From Patescibacteria group bacterium (GTDB lineage: Bacteria; Patescibacteriota; Minisyncoccia; Phycocordibacterales; DATDWN01), in contig JACDEV010000001.1 in the NCBI GenBank assembly GCA_013816135.1, positions 28,994 to 92,993 on the forward strand: a stretch of DNA of 64,000 bases, read 5' to 3'. Position numbers and translations under genes: made by a program. Under the pieces are notes generated by a model. That model did not search any database and was not told where the DNA came from. It saw only the letters and a program-made list of their open reading frames with translations. This document shows positions 26,564-59,994 of this stretch, piece after piece (the first letter of the stretch is position 1; every line of letters starts with the position of its first letter).

Positions 26564-26700
26564 CATATCATGAAGCCGGAGGTGAGAATCTTTCCCTCGA
26601 CTCAAACTCTCGCCGTCGCTCATGTTTGGTCTGGGCACCAACTCGCGTTTTCGTTTTGCTAAACGAAAAATCGCTCCGTTGTTCAAGTCTCTCGCGCGAA
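26564..26700 (+). other. Degenerate tRNA-Leu(CAA)-like pseudo-tRNA with two insertions, convergent with the real tRNA-Leu(CAA)
   Basis: Plus strand GCCGGAG...CGACTCAAA[~37-nt insert]CGCGT[~22-nt hairpin insert TTTTCGTTT-AGCA-AAACGAAAA]CGCTCCGTTGTTCAAGTCTCTC mirrors the acceptor, anticodon arm and T-arm of the adjacent tRNA. The 3' acceptor is not matched. Confidence 0.5.
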
Positions 26701-26723
26701 ACATGTTTCGCTCTCTAGCACAA

Positions 26724-26745
26724 ACCAAAAACCGCTTTCGCGGTT
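26724..26745 (-). terminator. Terminator after tRNA-Leu(CAA) (AAACCGC-GAAA-GCGGTTT + T5 on the minus strand)
   Basis: 7-bp stem and T5 immediately 3' of the tRNA. Confidence 0.6.
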
Positions 26746-26752
26746 TGTTTTG

Positions 26753-26834
26753 TGCCGGAGGAGAGACTTGAACTCTCAACCCTTGCGAGACGCGATTTTG
26801 AGTCGCGCGCGTATACCAATTCCGCCACTCCGGC
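26753..26834 (-). tRNA. tRNA-Leu (anticodon CAA)
   Basis: Acceptor GCCGGAG/CTCCGGC, anticodon loop CTCAAAA, long variable arm, T-loop TTCAAGT. Confidence 0.9.
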
Positions 26835-39115: not shown

Positions 39116-39199
39116 GGGCAAGTGGCGGAATTGGTATACGCGCTAGTCTTAGGAACTAGTTCCTCACGGATTGGGAGTTCGAGTCTCCCCTTGCCCACA
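39116..39199 (+). tRNA. tRNA-Leu (anticodon UAG)
   Basis: Acceptor GGGCAAG/CTTGCCC, anticodon loop CTTAGGA, long variable arm, T-loop TTCGAGT. Confidence 0.9.
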
Positions 39200-39236
39200 A
39201 TTAAAAAACACCTTTACCGGTGTTTTTTAATTGTGG
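39190..39236. repeat. 23-bp perfect inverted repeat that includes the last 10 nt of tRNA-Leu(UAG) and a terminator core
   Basis: CTTGCCCACAATTAAAAAACACC-TTTACC-GGTGTTTTTTAATTGTGGGCAAG. Confidence 0.7.
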
Positions 39237-39254
39237 GCAAGAGCAAAGCGATGC

Positions 39255-39345
39255 TTTGCGCGGGAGACTCGAACAACGGAGCGACTCTTGTTTTAGCAAA
39301 AACAAGACGCGAGTTGGTGTCCAGACCATAATTTTCTGACGAGAA
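39255..39345 (-). other. Second degenerate tRNA-Leu(CAA)-like element (homolog of 26564..26700), convergent with tRNA-Leu(UAG)
   Basis: Plus strand GCGCGGGAGACTCGAACAACGGAGCGA[CTCTTGTTTT-AGCA-AAAACAAGA]CGCGAGTTGGTGTCCAGACCA[CATAATTTTC-TGACGAG-GAAAATTATG]AGTCGCGG. It is ~80% identical to the reverse complement of 26590-26700, with compensatory changes in the inner hairpin. Confidence 0.5.
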
Positions 39346-39360
39346 AATTATGAGTCGCGG

Positions 39361-46657: not shown

Positions 46658-47134
46658 TTAACAAGGATTTGCAGCAAAAGGATCTTCACCAGAAGTGCAG
46701 TGTCCAGGAGTTTGATATATACCACTTGAACCGCCAACTGTTCCAGTGAAGTTAGGAACAGTTGTATGACTCTCTAATGTAGTTCCACCTGCTCCAGCCC
46801 CTATTCCACTTGGTTTTATCCCAAGAGCATTTCCAATAAAGGAAATTATTCCCATTATGGAAATAATAACAAAGAGAGCAACCACTCCCCAAATCATTTT
46901 CTGTTTACCCTCATCTCGAGTTTTTGAATCTCCTGCATGTAAAATGAATTGTCCAACTCCCCAGAAGAAATACAGAAATGCCAAACCTATTATGACAGGT
47001 TCTGTAAGGTGTAATATTTGTCTAATATCCAAAAGCAAACCTTTAATCCCATCGAGTGCTGCAAAAGAAACAACTGGAAATAAAACCAACACTGACAATA
47101 TTGCAAATGATATTTTATTTATATTTTTTTTCAT
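46658..47134 (-). CDS. VirB2/TrbC pilin-like paralog 3 (with a Gly/Thr-rich C-terminal extension)
   Basis: Signal peptide ...VSFA|AL; LYFFWGVGQFILHAGDSKTRDEGKQKMIWGVVALFVIISIMGI. Confidence 0.4.
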   Translation of the reverse strand: MKKNINKISFAILSVLVLFPVVSFAALDGIKGLLLDIRQILHLTEPVIIGLAFLYFFWGVGQFILHAGDSKTRDEGKQKMIWGVVALFVIISIMGIISFIGNALGIKPSGIGAGAGGTTLESHTTVPNFTGTVGGSSGIYQTPGHCTSGEDPFAANPC

Positions 47135-47139
47135 AATTA

Positions 47140-47547
47140 TTATTTATTAGGATACCCTACTTTACTACTATATTCCGGCGTTAAAACATCAGTCCTGAGA
47201 AGTACTCCATTTGGATCAGAGCCACCTGCAAAAAACTCACCCGCAGCAAGTCCAACCAATATACGATAGGTTACCATAATAAAAAGTGCTAACACTCCCC
47301 AGATCATATATTGTTTTCCTTTTGCTATTTCCTCAGGTTTACTGGAGCTAAGGATGAACTTGGAAAGACCCCAGAAGAAAACAAGTGATGCAAGGATTTC
47401 TAATATAGGAATAAGGGTATTAACAATTTCAGTAGCATATTGAACTATAGTCTGGAAATTAGATCCTGCTAGATCGAAATCTGCTCCGAAAACAATAGTA
47501 GGTACATATAATAAAGTCAGAAGGAAAATAATTTTCAAAGTTTTCAT
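47140..47547 (-). CDS. VirB2/TrbC pilin-like paralog 4
   Basis: LVFFWGLSKFILSSSKPEEIAKGKQYMIWGVLALFIMVTYRIL. Confidence 0.4.
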   Translation of the reverse strand: MKTLKIIFLLTLLYVPTIVFGADFDLAGSNFQTIVQYATEIVNTLIPILEILASLVFFWGLSKFILSSSKPEEIAKGKQYMIWGVLALFIMVTYRILVGLAAGEFFAGGSDPNGVLLRTDVLTPEYSSKVGYPNK

Positions 47548-47548
47548 G

Positions 47549-47938
47549 TTAAGTAGTTAATGCCGTTACTGTATTCTCAACAACCTGTGCAATCCCTGCG
47601 GCACCCAGCAATATACCAGCACCAATCAAAGCCCAGAGTAATCGTTGTTTAGCTATCTTGATTTCCTTGGGGTTACCTTGAGCTAAGACAAAACTGAAAC
47701 CTGCCCAGATAATCCAAACAACCACAATTACAGACGCTACAGGCATAATTATATTTTTAAGTATAGTTTTCAATAAAGCTGGAAGTGAATCACCTGCTTT
47801 TTTTGCTGGATTATCAATTCTTATATCATATGTTTGGGGAGGATTTACAAGCGGAGCTGATGGGACAGATGCACTAATGAAAAAAGGAACGGAGAGTAGA
47901 AACAAAAACATCAAAAGAAAACTTTTTTGTATTTTCAT
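47549..47938 (-). CDS. VirB2/TrbC pilin-like paralog 5
   Basis: IIWAGFSFVLAQGNPKEIKIAKQRLLWALIGAGILLGAAGI. Confidence 0.4.
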   Translation of the reverse strand: MKIQKSFLLMFLFLLSVPFFISASVPSAPLVNPPQTYDIRIDNPAKKAGDSLPALLKTILKNIIMPVASVIVVVWIIWAGFSFVLAQGNPKEIKIAKQRLLWALIGAGILLGAAGIAQVVENTVTALTT

Positions 47939-47943
47939 AAAAA

Positions 47944-48423
47944 TTATTTAAAAAATATTACAGGTTTATCTAGCAAAGAATTTGTTATCAAAGTGACAAT
48001 AAGCCATGCAGCCAATATAAATCCCATTCCTATTAACACTTTTACCAACATAGCATTAATCTTGGTTCTTTCACTAGGATTAGAGCCATTTATCATGTAC
48101 TTAAATCCTGCCCAAGCTAATATAACCACGCAAAACATCAATGCAAACTTCGATCCCCAAGCAACGATATCTACTGTTGCCGCAACCAAGTCCTTGAGAC
48201 CACAATTACCATACACTGCTGTGTCTCCAGAACCTTGAATGCATTCATAGGTTATACCCGTATTAGTATTTTTTCTGACCGGCTCATTGACTGGATTAGA
48301 GGATGGATTAACAAGGGGAGCATCTGTTGCGTAAATTACGACAGGTAGAACTAATAAGCAACAGAATAAAATAAGTATTGGTAAGAATAAAAATTTGTTT
48401 TTTATATTATTTGAAAATCTCAT
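47944..48423 (-). CDS. VirB2/TrbC pilin-like paralog 6 (Cys-containing N-terminal extension)
   Basis: ILAWAGFKYMINGSNPSERTKINAMLVKVLIGMGFILAAWLIV. Confidence 0.4.
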   Translation of the reverse strand: MRFSNNIKNKFLFLPILILFCCLLVLPVVIYATDAPLVNPSSNPVNEPVRKNTNTGITYECIQGSGDTAVYGNCGLKDLVAATVDIVAWGSKFALMFCVVILAWAGFKYMINGSNPSERTKINAMLVKVLIGMGFILAAWLIVTLITNSLLDKPVIFFK

Positions 48424-49703: not shown

Positions 49704-50227
49704 AATTTTTTAAAAATGAATCCATAGTGATGGCTTCCCGCAAATATCTCACGGTCTAAATGAAATCCGTGGTGAAGAAAAAGATCTTTGACCGTTTCTT
49801 TTTTCATAACATGCTCTGGTATAGGTCCAAGTCCGCCGAATGAATCCGTCCAATCTACCACCAATACTTTCCCGGCAGGCTTCAATACCCTTTTAGCTTC
49901 ATTTATTGTACCTTTTTTATCCTCAACTTGAAAAAGAACATTACATAGAAACACAATGTCTGCTGAAGCACTCTTGAGTTTTGTGCCATTTTCTTTTTCA
50001 ATATCTCCCCAAATGACTTCGATATTATAAAGTCCATCCTTTGCTGCTGTATTCTTCAGTTTTGTCAGAAGGTCTTTCTGGGCATCAATTGCATAAACTC
50101 TTCCTGTAGCCATGAGAGCTCTTGCTGCTGCTATAGAGTAATGTCCTGACCCACTGCCAAAATCTGCAATTTCTTGACCTACTTGTATTCCGCACTGCTC
50201 GACATTTTTTACCGGATCAGAAAACAT
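49700..50227 (-). CDS. Class I SAM-dependent methyltransferase (first gene of the pilin-like operon)
   Basis: Motif I IADFGSGSGHYS and LKPAGKVLVVDW; 175 aa. Confidence 0.6.
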   Translation of the reverse strand: MFSDPVKNVEQCGIQVGQEIADFGSGSGHYSIAAARALMATGRVYAIDAQKDLLTKLKNTAAKDGLYNIEVIWGDIEKENGTKLKSASADIVFLCNVLFQVEDKKGTINEAKRVLKPAGKVLVVDWTDSFGGLGPIPEHVMKKETVKDLFLHHGFHLDREIFAGSHHYGFIFKKL

Positions 50228-50254
50228 ATAACTTTATTATAGTATGAAAAAATC

Positions 50255-50278
50255 CCTTAAGTAAGGGAGTTATTAACA
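50255..50278 (-). terminator. Terminator hairpin (TCCCTT-AAGT-AAGGGA + T6 on the minus strand) immediately upstream of the methyltransferase start
   Basis: Either terminates gyrA transcripts about 250 nt downstream of gyrA, or acts as an attenuator in front of the operon. Confidence 0.5.
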
Positions 50279-50414
50279 AATAAAATCTCATACTCACAAC
50301 ATGCTTTCCTCAACACGCGTAAATCGCTGTTGCGATTTCGCTATGCTCGCTTACCCAGCTGTGCAAGTCTCGGAAAACATATTATTCGATGAGATTTAGT
50401 TAAAATGAATATTT

Positions 50415-50530
50415 CTCGTTGAGTCATAAGTTTTCTGAGACCTTCGCAAGGCTGACGAGCCGAGAAAAGCAAAATCTTTTCAAAGATTTATGCGTGTTGA
50501 AGAAAACTTATGACGAGAAAGAGATTTCTA
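50415..50530. repeat. Conserved ~115-nt structured element, copy Y (paralog of 57135..57245)
   Basis: About 75% identity to copy X. Hairpins covary: AAATCTTT-TC-AAAGATTT here versus AAATCTC-AGCA-GAGATTT in X, and GGCT-GACG-AGCC here versus GCG-ACGG-CGC in X. Confidence 0.5.
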
Positions 50531-53012
50531 CAAACATATCAAACTTGCTATCGAGTCGCCCTCCCGCAACTTCATAACCCTCACTCCCTGAGTCTGACGG
50601 CCTAGAACCGGAATCTCCTTTGCGTCTACACGTATAACCTGAGATTTCTTTGAGATGGCTACAACTTCTGCCTCGTCACTAGAGAATATCTTCGCTGAGA
50701 TGATATTTCCGGTCTTTGGAGTGACCTTTGCTGTTTTTATTCCTGACCCACCTCTATTTTGGATTTTGTATTCATCAATATCGGTTTTCTTTCCATATCC
50801 ATTATTTGAAATAACCATTATGGTAGCTGAGTTAACTGAGTTTGAAACGGTTTCAGCTGATATAACTTCATCGCCCTTGCCAAGCTTCATTCCACGAACA
50901 CCCATTGCTGTCCTACCCATCTCTCTTATATCTGATTCTTTGAAATGTATAGCCTGACCTTTTGCTGTAACGATAATCACAGTATCTTTCTTGTGAACAA
51001 ACGAAGCAGAGATTAGGGAATCACCACCATCTAGTTTGATCGCAATAATTCCAGAGATGCGCACATCATGAAAGCTGGCAGTAGAAACTTTCTTGGCTAC
51101 TCCTTGTTTGGTCACCATCATAAGTGAGCTTTCTGACTTCTTAACTTCCTTTGGCATTGGAAGAATAGAGGTGATTTTTTCACCTTCGAATAATGGGAGA
51201 AAATTCTGGACTGATTTACCTCGAGTTGCTCGCCTACCTTCTGGAATATCATACATTTTGGTCTGATATACCTTTCCTTTGTCAGTAAAGAACAAAAGGT
51301 CGGAATGAGTGGAAGTTATGAGAAGCATAGTTACAAAATCCTCTTCTTTGGTATCAAGGTCCACAACACCGACTCCCCCTCGTTTTTGTTTTCTAAATTC
51401 ATCTGGATTTGTACGCTTAATATATCCGCCTGCTGTCAAAACAAGTGCGTTCTCTTCATCTGCGATTAAATCTTCAACAGATAATATTTGAGCTCCGCCT
51501 TTGATTATTCGAGTTCTCCTTTCATCTCCGTACTTTTCTTTAATCTCTTTGCTCTCATCTTTAATTATTCCAAGAATCTTTTTTGGACTAGATAAAATAG
51601 CTTTCATTTCATCTATGAAAAGCTGGACTGCCTTCAATTCATCCTCGATTTTCTTTCTTTCAAGACCTGCAAGTCGTGAAAGCTTCATTTCCAAAATAGC
51701 TGTGGCCTGGATAGCAGAGAACTTGAACTCTGACATCAATTTTTTGTGTGCTTCCGGTGTATCTTTGGAACCACGGATGAGTTTGATTATCTGATCAATA
51801 TGATCGAGAGCTTTTTTCAATCCAAGAAGGATATGTTCTCTTTCTTGTGCCTTTCTTAAATCATATTCTGTTCGTTTTCTGATCACTGTCATTCGGTGAG
51901 TAACAAACTCTTCCAAAATTCCTTTTAGAGATAGAGTTTCTGGTACACCATTTACCAATGCAACCATGTTGTAATGGAAAGCTTCTTCAAGCTGAGTGTG
52001 CTTATATATATAATTCAAAACTGACTGTGGGTGAGAAGTTCCTTTGAGGTCAATTGCTATTCGAATATCCTTTGCAGACTCATCTCGCATAGCTTTTACT
52101 CCTTCAAGTTTTTTGTCTCGAACTAGTTCAGCTATCTTTGTAATAAGGTTTGCCTTGTTTACTCTATATGGAATGGAAGTAATAATAATCTGAAAATTCC
52201 CTGCTTTGTTTTCAACAATCTCCGCAACACCTCGAGTAACCACTCCGCCTTTTCCATTTGCATAGGCGTGAGCAATATCTTTTTGATTGAAAGCCACTCC
52301 TCCAATCGGAAAAATCTGGACCTTTAACGAACTGAAGTAGGTCTTCTGTTGTTGCGTCTTTATTGTCCACAAGATGAATTACGGCATCCATGACTTCTCC
52401 TAAGTTATGAGGAGGAATATTTGTTGCCATACCAACTGCAATACCCAAAGTTCCATTCAAAAGAAGGTTGGGGACTCGAGTTGGCAAAACTGCAGGCTCT
52501 TTCTTTGTGCCATCATAGTTCGGAAGAAAATTAACTGTCTCTTTTTCAATATCACGGAGAAGTTCTCCAGCAATCCTAGACATCTTGGCTTCGGTATATC
52601 GATAAGCCGCCGCATTATCACCGTCGATAGAACCAAAGTTTCCTTGTCCGATGATAAGTGGATACCGCATCGTGAAATCCTGAGCCATTTTGACCATAGA
52701 GTCGTAGACGGCAACGTCACCATGAGGATGGTAATCTCCAATAACCGCTCCAACTACTGTCGCTGATTTTCTAGTCTTGCCTGAAACAGTCAAGCCATTT
52801 TCATTCATCGCATGAAGAATCCTTCTATGTACTGGTTTCAATCCATCACGGACGTCAGGAAGGGCACGGTCAGTAATAACAGACATAGCGTAGTCGATAA
52901 AAGAGGTCTTCATTTCATCGATAATTTCCTGAGAAATAACGTTCACTCTTGGCAATATCGGCTCGTCTTTAGGAGTATCTGTAGATTTTTTAGGCATAAA
53001 AATATAGGTCAA
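50528..53012 (-). CDS. gyrA: DNA gyrase subunit A, interrupted by a single-base frameshift (two ORFs 52212..53012 and 50528..52372)
   Basis: The N-terminal ORF has the active-site [11 protein letters not shown] and ends ...KGPDF. The downstream frame continues ...[27 protein letters not shown]... The frames differ by +1 at the A5 run 52311-52315 (T5 on the coding strand). Confidence 0.8.
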
Positions 53013-53052
53013 TTATATCATATTCATAAAGCATTTCAAACACATATTTTAA

Positions 53053-53367
53053 TTATTGATTGCTAGTTTTAGCCCTAGAAGTAGTTGTGGAATAATAAAC
53101 TGAAGAATTTTTAATGGAAGAAAGAGTGTCTTTGATTGCCTTAAATCCTCCTGTAAGAGTTTCACCAAAAGTGGAAAGTGGACTCGGCTCTAAACTAGAA
53201 GCATTTTGTGTCTGAATTTGTTTTTGTCGGAAATCTGGATAAATAACAGAAAGCCAGATTACAAAAATAAGTCCTGAAATAAAGAAGGCAAAAGAAAAAG
53301 CAATTTGTTTTTTCTGACGCGGGGACTTTTGCCTTACTTTTTCAAGTATTTCTAACATTTTAAACAA
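53053..53367 (-). CDS. Small membrane protein, hypothetical
   Basis: 104-aa ORF with one TM helix (FAFFISGLIFVIWLSVIY). Confidence 0.35.
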   Translation of the reverse strand: MFKMLEILEKVRQKSPRQKKQIAFSFAFFISGLIFVIWLSVIYPDFRQKQIQTQNASSLEPSPLSTFGETLTGGFKAIKDTLSSIKNSSVYYSTTTSRAKTSNQ

Positions 53368-53995
53368 TTTCCAATACCGAAACTTCTGCTTCCATTCCTT
53401 CCAAGTCTTTTTTCTTAATAGTTAGCTTGTCTACTGGTTTTACTGCCTCACTACCAGATTCTTTCAAAAATACTTTCAAAGCATTTTTGTCACCCACGTC
53501 TTCAAAATGACTTGGAATGATGAGCTTTGGTTCGAACTGTACAGCGAGCTTATGTGCGCTTGCTGCATCCAAGACTCCGTTACCTCCTATAGGTACAAAA
53601 AGAATATCAATACCATCAATTGCTTCTTTAGTTTCAGAGCTTAAATCCTTGTCACCCAATGCACCAAGAAAACAGAGATTAATACCTTCTAGATACACTG
53701 TATATATAGTATTGACCTTTTCTTCACCGCCGTAATTAGATTTAGATAGAAAGCCTTTGATAAAAACTCCTGATACTTCGTACTCACCTGGACCTTTAAT
53801 TAGAAATGATTCTTTGTCACCGCGTGAAGTGACGTCTGAGCCATTGTGTTCAGGGCTGTTTAAAGAAATTAGGGTTATATCGCTTCCGAATCTAGTAGCT
53901 TTTAATTTTGAATCTTTTGAAATAGGATTAACTGCAATAGTAGTGTCTCCGAAGGTAACTTTGAAAAAATCTGCACCATGGTATGTAATTATCAT
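53360..53995 (-). CDS. MBL-fold metal-dependent hydrolase (UPF0173-like)
   Basis: 211 aa, beta-lactamase-fold-like with His/Asp motifs (ITYHGADFF...SPEHNGSD...PSHFED). Confidence 0.45.
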   Translation of the reverse strand: MIITYHGADFFKVTFGDTTIAVNPISKDSKLKATRFGSDITLISLNSPEHNGSDVTSRGDKESFLIKGPGEYEVSGVFIKGFLSKSNYGGEEKVNTIYTVYLEGINLCFLGALGDKDLSSETKEAIDGIDILFVPIGGNGVLDAASAHKLAVQFEPKLIIPSHFEDVGDKNALKVFLKESGSEAVKPVDKLTIKKKDLEGMEAEVSVLEIV

Positions 53996-54085
53996 AAGTC
54001 GATTATATAGGAATATTCTTTAATTTTCAATTTATACAACAACACCGCCAGACAAACGATGTTGTTGGCGGTGTTCCACAATCTA

Positions 54086-54340
54086 CTAACCTTTGATTCC
54101 AATCCAATCTGCTTTCGTTTGTCCCTTTTGAAAAGCTTCGAGTCGCTCTTTGTACATACGTAAGTCCAAAGCTTCGACTTCTTTCTGAGGAACCTGACGA
54201 TATATAGGGTCGAATCTCAATCTACCGTACTCTTTTCCCCCTTTGGTAATCGAAAGAATATCTCCGACAGAACGACCTATCACATACTCCTTCTTCTGGG
54301 GATTGTGCAACTGCGAGAATTCAACAAAAATTGGTGTCAT
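54086..54340 (-). CDS. Hypothetical small protein (GC-richer than flanks)
   Basis: 84-aa ORF. Confidence 0.3.
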   Translation of the reverse strand: MTPIFVEFSQLHNPQKKEYVIGRSVGDILSITKGGKEYGRLRFDPIYRQVPQKEVEALDLRMYKERLEAFQKGQTKADWIGIKG

Positions 54341-54486
54341 TAACTAACCTCCTTGATTACCCTCTCATATATCCCTACCGGGGTCAATTACGTAGACAAA
54401 ACTTTAATTTTCGATTTATTTTTAAATTTACGACAAAAGAAAAGCCCCGATTGAAGCCGGCCACAGTTGGCCGACTTCTTTCGAGA

Positions 54487-54630
54487 CTAGCACTGATGAA
54501 TTGCAATGATGATGGAAAGTAGCCCGGCAAGCACAGCGACAAACGCAGTGAGCCACCGGTAACGAGTATCCCCGCCAACATACAAACTGACATTAAACGC
54601 GCACACCACTGCACACACAAAAGAACCCAT
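54487..54630 (-). CDS. Possible 47-aa hydrophobic micro-protein with a strong RBS (GGAGGATTAGATC-ATG)
   Basis: Manual translation MGSFVCAVVCAFNVSLYVGGDTRYRWLTAFVAVLAGLLSIIIAIHQC. GC-rich. The listed 78-aa ORF in another frame looks less plausible. Confidence 0.25.
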   Translation of the reverse strand: MGSFVCAVVCAFNVSLYVGGDTRYRWLTAFVAVLAGLLSIIIAIHQC

Positions 54631-54801
54631 GATCTAATCCTCCTATTCTATATTATACACAATAATACAATATTGTCAAGTAGATTAAAAACTCTCATTC
54701 ATGTATAGTCAGACTCGTACATTAATAGCCGTAGTTTGCCTTAACCTTATCTCTTCCTGAATGCTTACTGTCCGAGATAAAAAGCTAACTACACACAACT
54801 A

Positions 54802-55947
54802 ATGTCAACAGCAACAGTAGGTAACGAAGAAGAAGTTAGAGATGAAACTCTAGAAAATGATGCAGAGCCAGTAAAGAAGGAAGGAACTATGTCTCGCATC
54901 TTGAATGCGAGTGCAAACCCTCCATCAATAGATGATGTTATAGAAGGAAAAGTAATCGGGATTGAAAAGTCATCGGTTTATATCGACATACCTCCATTTG
55001 GAACAGGTATTATTTATGGACGAGAATATATCAACGCTCGAGACATTATAAAGAAGATAAATGTTGGAGACAGCGTTGCTGGAAAAGTGGTTAGCCTTTC
55101 AAACAAAGATGGTTATATCGAAATTTCACTAAAAGAAGCAAGGCAAGCACTTATCTGGAGCGAAGCAGAAGACGCTATTCGAGACAAGAAAATCTTTGAA
55201 TTACCTATTCAAGAAGCCAACAAAGGAGGACTTATCCTCGCATGGCAAGGTATTTCTGGTTTTCTTCCAGCTTCACAGCTTAAAACTGAACACTACCCAC
55301 GAGTAGCTGATGGAGACAAAGAAAGAATCTTAGAAGAACTAAAGAAACTTGTTGGTCAGAAAATCTCAGTTGCAATCATTGGAGCAAGCCCTAAGGAAGG
55401 TAAGCTTATTTTCTCTGAAAAGAATCCTGAACAGAAGAATAAAGACTATATTATTGGCAAATATGCTTTGGGTGACGAAGTTATGGGAGAAATCACAGGA
55501 ATGGTTGATTTCGGAGTGTTCGTAAAACTTGAAGAAGGCTTAGAAGGACTTGTTCACATTTCTGAAATCGATTGGGCACTTGTTGAAAGTCCAAAACTTC
55601 TATTCCACATCGGAGAAAAAGTTAAAGTAAAAATAATAGAAATAAAGGAAGGCAAGATTTCTCTATCTATCAAGGCACTGAAAGAAAACCCTTGGAAAGA
55701 AGCTGAGAAGAAATACAAAAAAGACGACGTTGTTGAAGGTGTAGTTATAAAATTCAACAAGCACGGTGCACTAGCTTCTATCGAAGAAGGAATCGCAGGA
55801 CTTGTTCATATTTCTGAATTCGGTAGCGACCAAGTTCTTCACGACAAGCTTGAATTAGGTAAAAACTATAAATTCAAGATTTCAATGTTCGATGCAAAGG
55901 AACAGAAAATGACTTTGTCTTATATTGACCCAAGTAAGAAAGAGTAG
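54802..55947 (+). CDS. rpsA: 30S ribosomal protein S1 (four S1 domains)
   Basis: Repeated S1 motifs (GKVIGIEKSSVYIDI..., GEITGMVDFGVFVKL..., GVVIKFNKHGALASI...). Confidence 0.8.
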   Translation: MSTATVGNEEEVRDETLENDAEPVKKEGTMSRILNASANPPSIDDVIEGKVIGIEKSSVYIDIPPFGTGIIYGREYINARDIIKKINVGDSVAGKVVSLSNKDGYIEISLKEARQALIWSEAEDAIRDKKIFELPIQEANKGGLILAWQGISGFLPASQLKTEHYPRVADGDKERILEELKKLVGQKISVAIIGASPKEGKLIFSEKNPEQKNKDYIIGKYALGDEVMGEITGMVDFGVFVKLEEGLEGLVHISEIDWALVESPKLLFHIGEKVKVKIIEIKEGKISLSIKALKENPWKEAEKKYKKDDVVEGVVIKFNKHGALASIEEGIAGLVHISEFGSDQVLHDKLELGKNYKFKISMFDAKEQKMTLSYIDPSKKE

Positions 55948-55964
55948 TTATCCTAATAATTTTC

Positions 55965-56140
55965 CAAGACACGCATAAAGCCCTACTAGGGCTTTTGCTA
56001 TGCTCGTCAATCAAGAAAACAATCAATAAAATGAATTGTGTCCTTTCGCAAACTCGGCTACTGCCTCAAACAGTGCTTCGGACTATTCATTTTATTGTTG
56101 TTTTCTAATTGACTGTGCAATGTCTTGGAAAATTATTACT
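55965..56140. repeat. Nested palindromic element after rpsA: terminator + 12-nt outer IR + 21-nt inner IR + a conserved core shared with 59850-59900
   Basis: Terminator AAAGCCCTA-CT-AGGGCTTTT. Outer IR TTTTCCAAGACA/TGTCTTGGAAAA. Inner IR GAAAACAATCAATAAAATGAAT/ATTCATTTTATTGTTGTTTTC. Core CAAACTCGGCTACTGCCTCAAACAGTG. Confidence 0.5.
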
Positions 56141-56194
56141 CAAACTTATTGTTAAACAAACTCAAGTGCACGTCTTGACAATTAGAGGTTTATA

Positions 56195-56518
56195 GTGTAT
56201 ACATCTGCGATGAAATTTATTGCAGGTACATGCCTTTTTATAGCCCTACTCTCACCTAACTTTGCTGTTGCTGCGGGTTTTCAGAGTGAAAAAGTTTCAG
56301 CTTCCATCGAAGATAACGGCAACTGGCAATTAACTGACCTACAGTCACATGTAACTTGGCATGGAGAGTGGCTTTTCGGCCACATGATGAAAGTCAGCGG
56401 AAGTGATGATTCATGCTTTATTCTAGGAGAAAATGAAAAAGGTTTGGTTCAACTTGATTGCACAAATTTGAAAGAAATCAGTATACTTATCTATTACGAA
56501 CACTCAAATTCTAATTAA
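56195..56518 (+). CDS. Secreted hypothetical small protein
   Basis: Signal peptide ...FAVAA|GF; 107 aa. Confidence 0.35.
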   Translation: MYTSAMKFIAGTCLFIALLSPNFAVAAGFQSEKVSASIEDNGNWQLTDLQSHVTWHGEWLFGHMMKVSGSDDSCFILGENEKGLVQLDCTNLKEISILIYYEHSNSN

Positions 56519-57098
56519 ATCCAGTCATTGCCTTATCAAGTCCATCTGAGATGAAAGTTTCGATTGTTTGATTTACTTTTTTAGATAGTTTCTTTAATTC
56601 GGCTACTTCTTCTGGTTTGAATTTACCTAAAATAACTTTTGTAACAGCAGCTTCACCAGAAGGCTTTTTTATTTTGCCTGTTGGGGTCGTTGGAGAAATT
56701 CCAATCCTAACTCTGGAAAATTTTTCAGTCTTTATAGCTTTTATTATTGATTCAACTCCCCTATGACCTCCTGAAGAACGGTTAAAAGAGATTTTGGACT
56801 TTCCGAAAGGCATATCTAAATCATCATAGATTATAATCATTTTTTCCGCTGCTTTAACACTGCCCACTAGTGGCTTAACGGATTTACCAGAATCATTCAT
56901 AAAAGTATCTGGTAACACTAAAGTTACTGTTTGCTTCCCGACTTTTACTTTCGCCACTTGGGCATTCAGTTTCTTATCAGCTTTCCAATCAGCATCTAAA
57001 GATTTTCCAAACCATTCTACCAACATTCGTCCAGTATTATGGCGTGTTTCTTCATATTCAGCACCTGGATTACCCAACCCTACTAATATGTATGACAT
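56511..57098 (-). CDS. pth: Peptidyl-tRNA hydrolase
   Basis: LVGLGNPGAEYEETRHNTGRMLVEWF Pth signature. Confidence 0.85.
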   Translation of the reverse strand: MSYILVGLGNPGAEYEETRHNTGRMLVEWFGKSLDADWKADKKLNAQVAKVKVGKQTVTLVLPDTFMNDSGKSVKPLVGSVKAAEKMIIIYDDLDMPFGKSKISFNRSSGGHRGVESIIKAIKTEKFSRVRIGISPTTPTGKIKKPSGEAAVTKVILGKFKPEEVAELKKLSKKVNQTIETFISDGLDKAMTGFN

Positions 57099-57134
57099 AA
57101 AAATAATTATAACATACCTCCTTTACTGTAAAAA

Positions 57135-57245
57135 CTCGTTGAGATCATTTGTTTTTAGAGACTTCGCAGTGCGACGGCGCGAGATAAGCAAAATCTCAGC
57201 AGAGATTTATGCGGTTTATAAAAACAAATGTTGAGAAAGAGTTTT
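57135..57245. repeat. Conserved ~115-nt structured element, copy X (paralog of 50415..50530), in the divergent pth/lepB intergenic region
   Basis: CTCGTTGAG...GAGACTTCGCAGTGCGACGGCGCGAGATAAGCAAAATCTCAGCAGAGATTTATGCGG...ATGTTGAGAAAGAG aligns along its full length with copy Y. Confidence 0.5.
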
Positions 57246-57306
57246 GATTTATTACGTCACGCAAAATCCCATTGTGTCAAACGTACATCACCTGTATACT
57301 GCAACC

Positions 57307-57891
57307 ATGAATGAAGAAACTCCTTTAATTTCTCCTATTAAACCCCAATCTTCCAATAAAGCTGTTCTGAAAGAAATAATAATATTGGGCCTCATTGCAC
57401 TTGGAATCATACTTCCATTTCGGCTTTTTATTGCCGAGCCTTATATAGTTTCAGGAGCCTCAATGGACCCTACATTTAAAACTGGAGACTATTTAATAGT
57501 AGATAAGCTTTCATATGAACTAGGAACCCCAAAAAGGAATACAGTTATAGTATTCAAATACCCTAACGACCCTACAAAAAGCTTCATCAAAAGAGTGATT
57601 GGTTTACCCGGCGAAACTGTAATTATGGAAGGTAATAATGTTCGAATAATAAATAAGGACAAACCACAAGGTTTTGAAGTTGATCAATCCTATGTAACTC
57701 ATCCCCAAGCAGAATCTTTCCAAAAAACATTAAAAAGCGATGAGTATTTCGTTATGGGAGATAATAGAAGGGAAAGTTTTGATTCCAGATCATGGGGACC
57801 ACTTCAGAAAAAGTTTATTCTTGGTAAACCAATACTAAGATTATTTCCAATAAATAAAATAAGTGTGCAGCCAGGAAAGGATGATAAGTAA
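57307..57891 (+). CDS. lepB: Signal peptidase I
   Basis: SGASMDPTFKTGDYLIVDK (S26 SM.PT box) and GDNRRESFDSR. The start was moved to the Met at 57307 (MNEETPLI...) inside the listed ORF. Confidence 0.8.
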   Translation: MNEETPLISPIKPQSSNKAVLKEIIILGLIALGIILPFRLFIAEPYIVSGASMDPTFKTGDYLIVDKLSYELGTPKRNTVIVFKYPNDPTKSFIKRVIGLPGETVIMEGNNVRIINKDKPQGFEVDQSYVTHPQAESFQKTLKSDEYFVMGDNRRESFDSRSWGPLQKKFILGKPILRLFPINKISVQPGKDDK

Positions 57892-59787: not shown

Positions 59788-59839
59788 CACTTACTTTTCC
59801 TAAAATTTTCGAAAGCCTTGCACAGGAAATTAGAAAATA

Positions 59840-59915
59840 ACAGCGAGTCCCGTCAGCCGGAGACACTGTTTGAGGCTGCAGCCGAGTTTGTCGGGAGGCA
59901 AGGGACGAGCGCTTT
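59840..59915. repeat. GC-rich palindromic element containing the second, inverted copy of the ~27-nt core seen at 56058-56087
   Basis: The reverse complement of 59861-59890 reads CAAACTCGGCTGCAGCCTCAAACAGTG (25/27 identical to the 56058 copy). It is flanked by the IR AGCGAGTCCC/GGGACGAGCGCT. Confidence 0.45.
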
Positions 59916-59994
59916 ATTTTCTTGATTTCCGAGCAGAGCAAAAGTCTAGAAAGACTTTATGCGAGCTTAAGAAAATTTTTTAGGAAAAAACCTT

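Follow-up and report, generated by a model that had tools for sequence, protein, structure and literature searches.

Miniature inverted-repeat transposable elements (MITEs), such as Correia, ERIC and RUP, are recognized by conserved terminal inverted repeats, a target-site duplication and near-identical copies within a genome, and Correia and ERIC elements come in short and long size classes. In REP/BIME sequences with RAYT, the palindromic unit measures 20-40 nt and has a conserved GTAG foot, and tnpA(REP) is linked to it; integron attC sites have conserved R''/L''...L'/R' boxes at the base, a variable top, one-orientation arrays and intI; and invertons enclose a promoter between inverted repeats kept as recombinase sites and are present in both orientations in one population. 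Among RNAs, several small ribozyme classes are multi-copy, occur in both orientations and have no fixed gene association, while box C/D-like kink-turns combine a 3-nt bulge and tandem G.A and A.G pairs with box C (RUGAUGA), box D (CUGA) and an adjacent Tas (Nop-domain) gene. The TIGR-Tas stem arrays of the candidate phyla radiation (CPR) are of this kink-turn, box C/D-like kind (PMC12045711). Here we describe a structured element that occurs in five copies in a 64,000-nt stretch of a Patescibacteria genome (assembly GCA_013816135.1, contig JACDEV010000001.1, positions 28,994 to 92,993 of the forward strand; hereafter, the window). Each copy folds into a long basal helix capped by a conserved three-way junction, and the family is absent from Rfam 15 and from the literature covered.

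Three of the copies are short (X, Y and Z) and two are long (V and W); P0 to P4 denote helices.

50283..50397, minus strand: copy Z, short form; core 50304-50380; placed by three-way alignment
50414..50524, plus strand: copy Y, short form; P0 UCUC/GAGA, internal loop GUUGA/GAGAAA, P1, core 50429-50506, P1'
55955..56137, minus strand: copy V, long form; placed by repeat search and long-form alignment
57131..57245, plus strand: copy X, short form; P0 AAAACUC/GAGUUUU, core 57148-57225
59798..59985, plus strand: copy W, long form, between ybeY and ftsA; placed by repeat families D1, I5, I6 and I9 and by alignment

A degenerate core pattern matched the window five times, compared with 0.00 matches expected from 100 shuffles, so that the similarity is far above chance, and a covariance model run with filters off found no sixth copy anywhere in the 64 kb. 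Across the family the element measures ~115-185 nt. The covariance model, R1, scored X at 72.8, Y at 69.1 and Z at 65.5 bits, and minimum free energies against shuffled controls were -40.7 kcal/mol for Y (z -4.8), -37.1 for X (z -4.2), -69.1 for W (z -5.6) and -82.1 for V (z -13). Copy X occupies the divergent gap between pth (minus) and lepB (plus). Copies Z and Y stand 5'-to-5' (head-to-head), separated by a 16-nt AT-rich spacer, and V is antisense to both of its flanks, an S1-domain gene (plus, ending at 55947) and a 102-aa open reading frame (ORF; plus).

The family departs from the described DNA repeats at several points. Unlike in MITEs, its arms differ between copies, no direct repeats were seen at its boundaries, and X and Y are ~70% identical (79 of 116 columns), Z being more distant; the X/Y alignment does extend over the whole length of both copies, as a first-pass annotation of this DNA had described for 50415-50530 and 57135-57245. 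Its size and branched conserved head do not fit REP/BIME, and no GTAG foot appears in the alignments. The arrangement of attC is reversed, with variation at the base and conservation at the top, and the copies lie in mixed orientations between housekeeping genes; a GTTGAGT in Y fits the attC motif GTTRRRY, but it is at the wrong end and is not conserved.

Fold, covariation and homologs

The consensus fold was derived from a 35-sequence alignment and then checked by pair counts and covariation tests. The basal helix P1 is 17-43 bp long and almost perfectly paired, yet its sequence shows no conservation and differs even between copies of one genome. In a subset of copies only, an outermost helix P0 (e.g., AAAACUC/GAGUUUU) is present around a purine-rich GUYGMR/RAGRAA internal loop. 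One or two unpaired nucleotides separate P1 from P2 (3 bp, consensus UGC/GCA), which is followed by an internal loop, 5'-GNA / 5'-GA, whose G, A, G and A are conserved and whose middle base is free; this loop probably forms two sheared G.A pairs and one looped-out base. P3 has 4 bp and a GACG or GACUG loop. Two unpaired nucleotides follow the 3' strand of P2 and lead into P4, which comprises a GCA clamp, an A/U-rich stem, a loop of AGCA/ACCA/AGUA (ANYA) type, a bulged A and UGC, and a final GU connects P4 to the 3' arm of P1. About 20 nucleotides are invariant, and they are concentrated in the junctions and loops of the ~55-nt branched head. In the long form, P3 is replaced by a covarying arm of ~30 bp that ends in GAAGCAYUGUUUGAG-hairpin-CGAGUUUGCGARAGG; in W the conserved apical module of this arm reads CUGUUUGAG..CGAGUUUG. 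The fold of Y is made up as follows.

50423..50441, plus strand: 5' arm of P1, pairing with 50496-50514 and including tandem G.A pairs (CUGAG/UUGAAG)
50443-50445, plus strand: UUC of P2, pairing with GAA at 50464-50466
50450..50461, plus strand: P3 hairpin, GGCU-GACG-AGCC, flanked by the GCA(A)/GA internal loop and P2
50469..50493, plus strand: P4 hairpin, with GCA clamp, A/U-rich stem, 4-nt loop, bulged A and UGC

Several other assignments were tried and set aside. P2 as CGCA/UGCG was ruled out by the covariation of AGCA with AUGC (AGCG with ACGC), which assigns UGC to P4, and an alternative GCA/UGC pairing that might have formed a switch was likewise resolved by covariation in favor of P4. 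A kink-turn at P2/P3 conflicts in register with the covarying P3 pairs, and the box C/D-like CUGA/UGAAGA in P1 amounts to the tandem G.A pairs listed above, with no bulge and no arrays present.

Covariation is apparent from X and Y alone. The first-pass annotation had pointed to it in P4 (AAAUCUUU/AAAGAUUU in Y and AAAUCUC/GAGAUUU in X) and in P3, where we found GGCU-GACG-AGCC in Y and GUGC-GACG-GCGC in X, so that its P3 covariation stands while its register in X was one position off. It had also observed that both copies end in ATG-N2-GAGAAAGAG, which they do; GAGAAAGAG is the conserved internal loop together with the 3' arm of P0. P1, of 14-19 bp in these two copies, covaries as well (GUCAUAAGUUUUCU/AGAAAACUUAUGAC in Y and AUCAUUUGUUUUUA/UAAAAACAAAUGUU in X). 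Since the ATG lies in the covarying 3' arm of P1, it is part of a stem and not a start codon. The shared ATG-N2-GAGAAAGAG is what speaks for a duplicated promoter followed by the 5' end of a duplicated small ORF (MxRKxF), an alternative raised at the outset that we now regard as almost certainly wrong: homologs do not conserve the ATG, having GCTGGC, GCGCC or ATACT there, the reading frames differ in length (7 aa in Y, where the AUG is inside the invariant UUUAUGCG, and 12 aa in X), and neither has a Shine-Dalgarno sequence.

The same signal was obtained from larger samples. In the set drawn from genomes, 91.2% of cells were paired, compared with 67.0% after shuffling, and 300 cells showed a double change, compared with 96; sliding the 3' partner by 1-3 columns reduced pairing to 36-50%. 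In an independent metagenome set the figures were 92.1% vs. 68.8% paired and 447 vs. 129 double-change cells, all 24 of 24 pairs changed on both sides, and none of 500 shuffles reached the observed values. P2, which lies outside the paired columns of the alignment model, was paired in 90.6% of cells with 21 vs. 4.6 double-change cells (0 of 500 shuffles), and P4 was paired in 99.3-99.6% of cells, its GCA/UGC clamp covarying with GCG/CGC, GUA/UAC, ACA/UGU and GGA/UCC. Shuffle statistics of this kind overstate significance somewhat, as related sequences are not independent events, but the slide controls and the independent metagenome set speak for a real signal.

Homologs were collected by a core-pattern scan of 185,579 species genomes, which returned at least 119 blocks. 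Among the matches listed, at least 42 loci (at least 56 copies) are true members with covariance-model scores of 33-91 bits, whereas the remaining 76 loci scored 25 bits or less. The true loci are nearly all in metagenome-assembled genomes (MAGs) labeled Saccharibacteria, Paceibacterota/Parcubacteria, Nomura-, Taylor-, Kaiser- or Zambryskibacteria or Minisyncoccia, the labels being used as deposited, with a few unlabeled and one on a "Nitrospira" contig. That contig (L012, JBEBJM010000008.1, labeled Nitrospira sp.) carries two long-form copies and is probably mis-binned Patescibacteria DNA. A metagenome scan added at least 94 matches, at least 86 of them distinct, for a total of at least ~130 further copies from Patescibacteria MAGs and from metagenomes; both the taxonomic breadth and the copy number are thus minimum figures, and in this sample the family is restricted to Patescibacteria. 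None of 33 pattern matches in IMG/VR viral contigs was real by the covariance model. The covariance-model search for relatives that the first-pass annotation had proposed thus yielded further members, and their significant covariation bears out its view that selection acts on nucleic-acid secondary structure rather than on a protein; the contrary outcome it had named, no homologs and no significant covariation, is not what was found.

The pattern also matched, by chance, an unrelated long palindromic repeat, GTCATTGCGAGCGnAGCGAAGCAATCCAG...CTGGATTGCTTCGC...GCAATGAC, of Sphingomonadaceae, Bradyrhizobium and other Alphaproteobacteria (loci L003, L007, L017, L018, L022, L030, L037, L041, L043, L049 and others). 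Close to the source organism, a contig of GCA_020064125.1 has an identical pth and all five copies with identical model scores; protein identities set the organism beside a Minisyncoccia MAG (FtsA 76%) and a Kaiserbacteria-labeled MAG (GyrA 67%).

No cataloged RNA family accounts for the element. At the gathering threshold, the 4227 models of Rfam 15 found only tRNAs in the window and 18 homolog loci, so the known leaders and T-boxes suggested as candidates at first pass gave no match, and neither did riboswitches, known ribozymes, 5S, SRP, 6S or Y RNA; scans at E<=10 around X, Y/Z and V returned only spurious miRNA, snoRNA and sRNA matches far below threshold, and the eight ordinary tRNAs reported by ARAGORN in the window do not overlap the elements. 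No published description was found in the full-text literature, a corpus outside which most subscription journals fall. These results bear on a new class of self-cleaving or catalytic RNA, a special case of a structured RNA in which the junction would be the active site and P1-P4 its scaffold. Such a class would fit the ~20 invariant nucleotides in junctions and internal loop, the variable peripheral stems, the multiple copies in both orientations without fixed gene association and the position outside Rfam. We nevertheless think it very unlikely, as the models of hammerhead, twister, twister-sister, pistol, hatchet and HDV ribozymes found nothing similar even at E<=10, nothing points to a cleavage site, and a ribozyme would not need so long a P1. 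A hammerhead at CUGACGAG in Y was rejected: X has no CUGA, and there is no GAAA/UH core and no Rfam match.

Strand, orientation and flanking genes

To identify the strand that folds, we aligned the arms of P1 as a DNA palindrome with orientation-neutral scoring and counted the mismatches. G.A/A.G mismatches outnumbered C.U/U.C by 60 to 4, purine-purine outnumbered pyrimidine-pyrimidine by 84 to 13, and G.U outnumbered A.C by 31 to 15; in addition, the long-form arm contains conserved U.G pairs. This asymmetry, together with the U.G pairs, identifies the sense strand as the strand selected to fold. It is the plus strand for X, Y and W and the minus strand for Z and V.

Genomic context was surveyed in 134 non-redundant copies (a lower bound), of which 80 had both neighbors called within 400 nt; ORFs were called mechanically at a minimum of 80-90 aa. 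With the element (E) pointing to the right, the flanks were distributed as follows.

<-E<-: 29 of 80 copies
->E->: 18 of 80 copies
->E<-: 18 of 80 copies
<-E->: 15 of 80 copies

Only 33 of these 80 copies share their strand with the downstream gene, so that orientation is near random and independent of the neighbors. It also changes at orthologous sites: between L036 and L094 the flanks are collinear and the entire element, P0 included, is inverted, and clustering of neighbor proteins revealed differing orientations in L029/L064 and L054/L090. Position and orientation can also persist, as with Y, which is kept after gyrA in L009 (GyrA 67% identity), where P1 has changed by many compensatory substitutions. 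The hisS-like/hyp82/ybeY/ftsA cluster of L061 and L097 also has copies, in a gap other than that of W.

These findings undercut the earlier suggestion of a riboswitch- or attenuator-like arrangement, that is, a cis-regulatory 5' leader (riboswitch, attenuator or ribosomal-protein leader) controlling the downstream gene. X, W and Z do precede lepB, ftsA and the methyltransferase gene, respectively, on the same strand, some homologs stop 13-20 nt short of a start codon, and the three-way junction, whose joining regions are conserved, is aptamer-like. A leader is nonetheless highly improbable. Besides near-random orientation and flips, Y and V face gene 3' ends, and the genes downstream of different copies are functionally unrelated. 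There is no alternative pairing or expression platform, P1 is too long, stable and nearly perfect to be a switching helix, and a terminator, where present, is a separate hairpin past the element that divides it from the gene. For X in particular, the TATAAT-like hexamer 6-8 nt before the lepB ATG would place the element upstream of the lepB promoter.

A TATAAT-like hexamer, likewise 6-8 nt from the ATG, precedes pth and the methyltransferase gene, and the 102-aa ORF has a TTGACA hexamer and a partial -10 (TAT...) ~10 nt before its ATG. These spacings suggest that the first genes of operons may be leaderless in the source organism. The promoter-like sites, as read from the sequence, and the canonical terminator of this region are as follows.

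50228-50250, minus strand: promoter-like site
50245..50268, minus strand: canonical intrinsic terminator, 6-bp stem and U6, 14 nt past Z
56171-56212, plus strand: promoter-like site
57099-57125, minus strand: promoter-like site
57296-57311, plus strand: promoter-like site

On the minus strand, Z's terminator is followed by a TATAAT hexamer and then by the methyltransferase ATG at 50227. The first-pass annotation was right that Y adjoins gyrA, which ends at 50528, although the terminator hairpin with U6 that it placed next to Y belongs after Z. A terminator scan found none at X, V or W. Across the family, canonical terminators flank only ~12% of copies per side and strand; on the sense strand they lie directly before or after some copies, and of 35 copies that precede a same-strand gene, 9, Z among them, are cut off from it by such a terminator. 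Both here and in L009, gyrA is followed by an antisense copy and then by a canonical terminator. In some copies the base of the stem is itself an A-run/U-run, as in the P0 of X.

The gaps to the flanking genes, counted outward from the palindrome ends, are asymmetric.

3' side to the stop codon of a convergent gene: median 9 nt, 43 of 55 within 25 nt
5' side to the stop codon of a same-strand gene: median 52 nt, 18 of 47 within 25 nt
3' side to the start codon of a same-strand gene: median 49 nt
5' side to the start codon of an opposite-strand gene: median 88 nt

All eight adjacent pairs of copies (<200 nt apart) are arranged 5'-to-5'.

The strongest rival to an autonomous RNA is a palindromic repeat at gene ends resembling REP/BIME, ERIC or Correia elements, a hairpin co-transcribed with its neighbors and working in either orientation as an mRNA 3'-end stabilizer, RNase III site or factor-dependent terminator, with the head secondary, e.g., as a protein landing pad. 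We consider this rather unlikely, but much in the data is consistent with it. The copies are intergenic, occur in both orientations and fall into a short and a long size class. Of 102 flanks that face the element with a stop codon, 43 come within 10 nt of the base of the hairpin, and convergent gaps exceed divergent ones (18 vs. 15, and 14 vs. 7 in neighbor clustering). P1, being nearly wobble-free, pairs on either strand; a canonical terminator is missing from the vicinity of most copies, and between the S1-domain gene and the next promoter, antisense V is present and there is no other terminator. Yet in ~70% of tight cases (30 vs. 13 within 10 nt) the abutted gene's mRNA does not contain the folding strand, and after gyrA, in the window as in L009, a canonical terminator is supplied in addition to the antisense copy. 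Moreover, P1 varies within a genome while the core is conserved across lineages with covarying stems, a pattern not shared by young MITE or REP families. Neither target-site duplications nor copies in viral contigs were observed.

An element acting at the DNA level, with inverted repeats around an asymmetric core that would work as folded single-stranded DNA or a cruciform (in recombination, priming or as a roadblock) or as an invertible switch, would account for in-situ orientation flips between related genomes, for inverted repeats that are almost wholly Watson-Crick, with G.U about as frequent as A.C in P2-P4, and for the larger palindromes formed by paired copies. We judge it improbable all the same. 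The repeat sequences differ per locus, so no site-specific invertase could recognize them, and the core has, on inspection, no convincing outward promoter. All three assemblies of the source organism have the element in one and the same orientation, flips being seen only between species. Non-canonical pairs are strongly strand-asymmetric and include RNA-typical G.A motifs. Copies point both ways within 10 kb, which argues against a link to replication direction, and no recombinase or HUH gene was noted beside them in a search that was not exhaustive.

A self-contained RNA as the tentative reading

A single folding strand, indifference to orientation with flips, and a gene-like asymmetry of the flanks are, taken together, hard to reconcile with a cis element of a neighbor's mRNA, whether in its 5' or 3' untranslated region, and the fact that the neighbor's mRNA holds the non-folding strand in ~70% of tight abutments favors a self-contained RNA. 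We therefore lean, tentatively, toward reading each copy as a self-contained structured-RNA module rather than as a control element of the adjacent gene. The module is most likely either a small noncoding RNA gene or an RNA excised from any transcript that crosses it. A bolder version of this reading, which we hold as possible but doubtful, is that the copies are genes for an unrecognized class of small structured RNA found across Patescibacteria/CPR, the head serving as a ribonucleoprotein subunit or catalyst and the base being self-terminating on both strands and prone to inversion.

If each copy is indeed a self-contained RNA, the element would be transcribed, P1 would be processed, e.g., by RNase III, and the head would bind a protein or RNA. 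The invariant junction and loop nucleotides would constitute the functional head, presumably binding a partner conserved across Patescibacteria, and the variable, almost wobble-free P1 would bring the ends of the RNA together. P1 is probably a processing or termination hairpin and, since it pairs on both strands, might also close the mRNA of a convergent neighbor at its stop codon.

Several observations weigh against this self-contained RNA, whose transcription is presumed. Upstream of the palindrome, -10-like hexamers showed neither enrichment nor a positional peak relative to control; in the pairs, where 32-48 nt lie between cores, the 5' arms nearly touch and leave little room for a promoter; and the unit inverted between L036 and L094 is the element alone, without an outside promoter. 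Downstream, the U-tract is not enriched (a mean of 3.4 T vs. 3.2 A in the 10 nt past the palindrome), and P1 is for this reason not a canonical intrinsic terminator. Finally, wobble pairs are rare in P2-P4 (12 G.U vs. 9 A.C in ~900 cells), which is unusual for an RNA that folds from one strand, and the complementary strand may also have to pair.

Patescibacteria are ultra-small bacteria that account for a large share of bacterial diversity, most of it uncultured, and their genomes, of ~1 Mb, leave very little space to noncoding DNA. In genomes this compact, a multi-copy element with ~20 invariant nucleotides and covariation in every helix is likely to be important. As an RNA gene, it would add a lineage-wide class of noncoding RNA to a group whose RNA biology is almost unknown; as a gene-end element, it would represent a mode of transcript-end formation not described for Patescibacteria. 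Either way, concrete rules are available (one folding strand, a 3' end abutting stop codons, obligate 5'-to-5' neighbor pairs and orientation flips), and the alignment behind model R1 suffices for annotating the family.

Neighboring features and known systems

The gyrA gene next to Y (50528-53012, minus strand) is split into overlapping ORFs, 52212-53012 and 50528-52372, in different frames. On JAITZQ013542813.1, from the same organism, gyrA is a single 822-aa gene, and from the sequences the split is a 1-nt indel relative to L120, either an assembly error or a pseudogene; recoding of UGA was ruled out, as the two parts lie in different frames. An origin of replication near the cumulative GC-skew minimum (52-56 kb) was also rejected, there being no DnaA-box cluster and gene orientation being mixed. 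Downstream of the methyltransferase and solute-binding-protein genes, 46658-48423 (minus strand) holds four small paralogous ORFs (129-159 aa) in a run that extends past 46658, and their products match the T4SS_pilin/TrbC Pfam families in the matching public contig.

The window also contains a second structured repeat family of ~110-130 nt, the T elements, at 26595-26704 (minus) and 39251-39360 (plus), each directly 3' of a tRNA-Leu gene and its palindromic terminator. Each includes two hairpins, one with a GACG loop and one with an AGCA loop, a GC clamp and a bulged A; these are the same modules as P3 and P4 of the main family in reversed order, and both stems covary between the two copies. 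No Rfam match was found at the gathering threshold and no homolog among ~270 loci compared. Directly past the tRNA-Leu genes, 39195-39236 (plus) and 26715-26760 (minus) are long perfect A-run/U-run palindromes (e.g., CCACAATTAAAAAACACC...GGTGTTTTTTAATTGTGG) that look like bidirectional intrinsic terminators.

Among described systems, the ERIC, Correia (CREE) and REP/BIME repeats share with the present family an intergenic position, a length of ~100-180 nt, long hairpins in both orientations, frequent placement just past stop codons, short and long size classes and sometimes inverted pairs. The present family differs in that its stem changes from locus to locus by compensatory substitution while the conserved part is an asymmetric three-way-junction head, in that it is shared by several Patescibacteria lineages and not confined to a single genus or family, and in that no terminal inverted repeats, target-site duplications, GTAG motif or linked transposase were seen here.

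The RNase III hairpins of phage T7 type are likewise long intercistronic double-stranded stems with conserved internal loops, and they offer a plausible analogy for the use of P1. Those sites have no three-way-junction head and work in one orientation only, and cleavage of P1 is here only presumed.

The genes for Y RNA, 5S rRNA and tRNA-like RNAs resemble the present element in termini paired in a basal helix, a branched conserved head and a gene-like asymmetry of gaps, although the present element has a much smaller head (~55 nt) and no ARAGORN or Rfam match or recognizable promoter. The orphan noncoding RNAs of Rfam, such as raiA, HEARO, ROOL and Drum, were also defined by covariation, have conserved junction nucleotides, variable stems and an optional extra domain, and had no known function at discovery. 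In contrast to them, the present family matches none of the 4227 Rfam 15 models and has an unusually long, wobble-poor closing helix, multiple copies and changes of orientation at orthologous sites.

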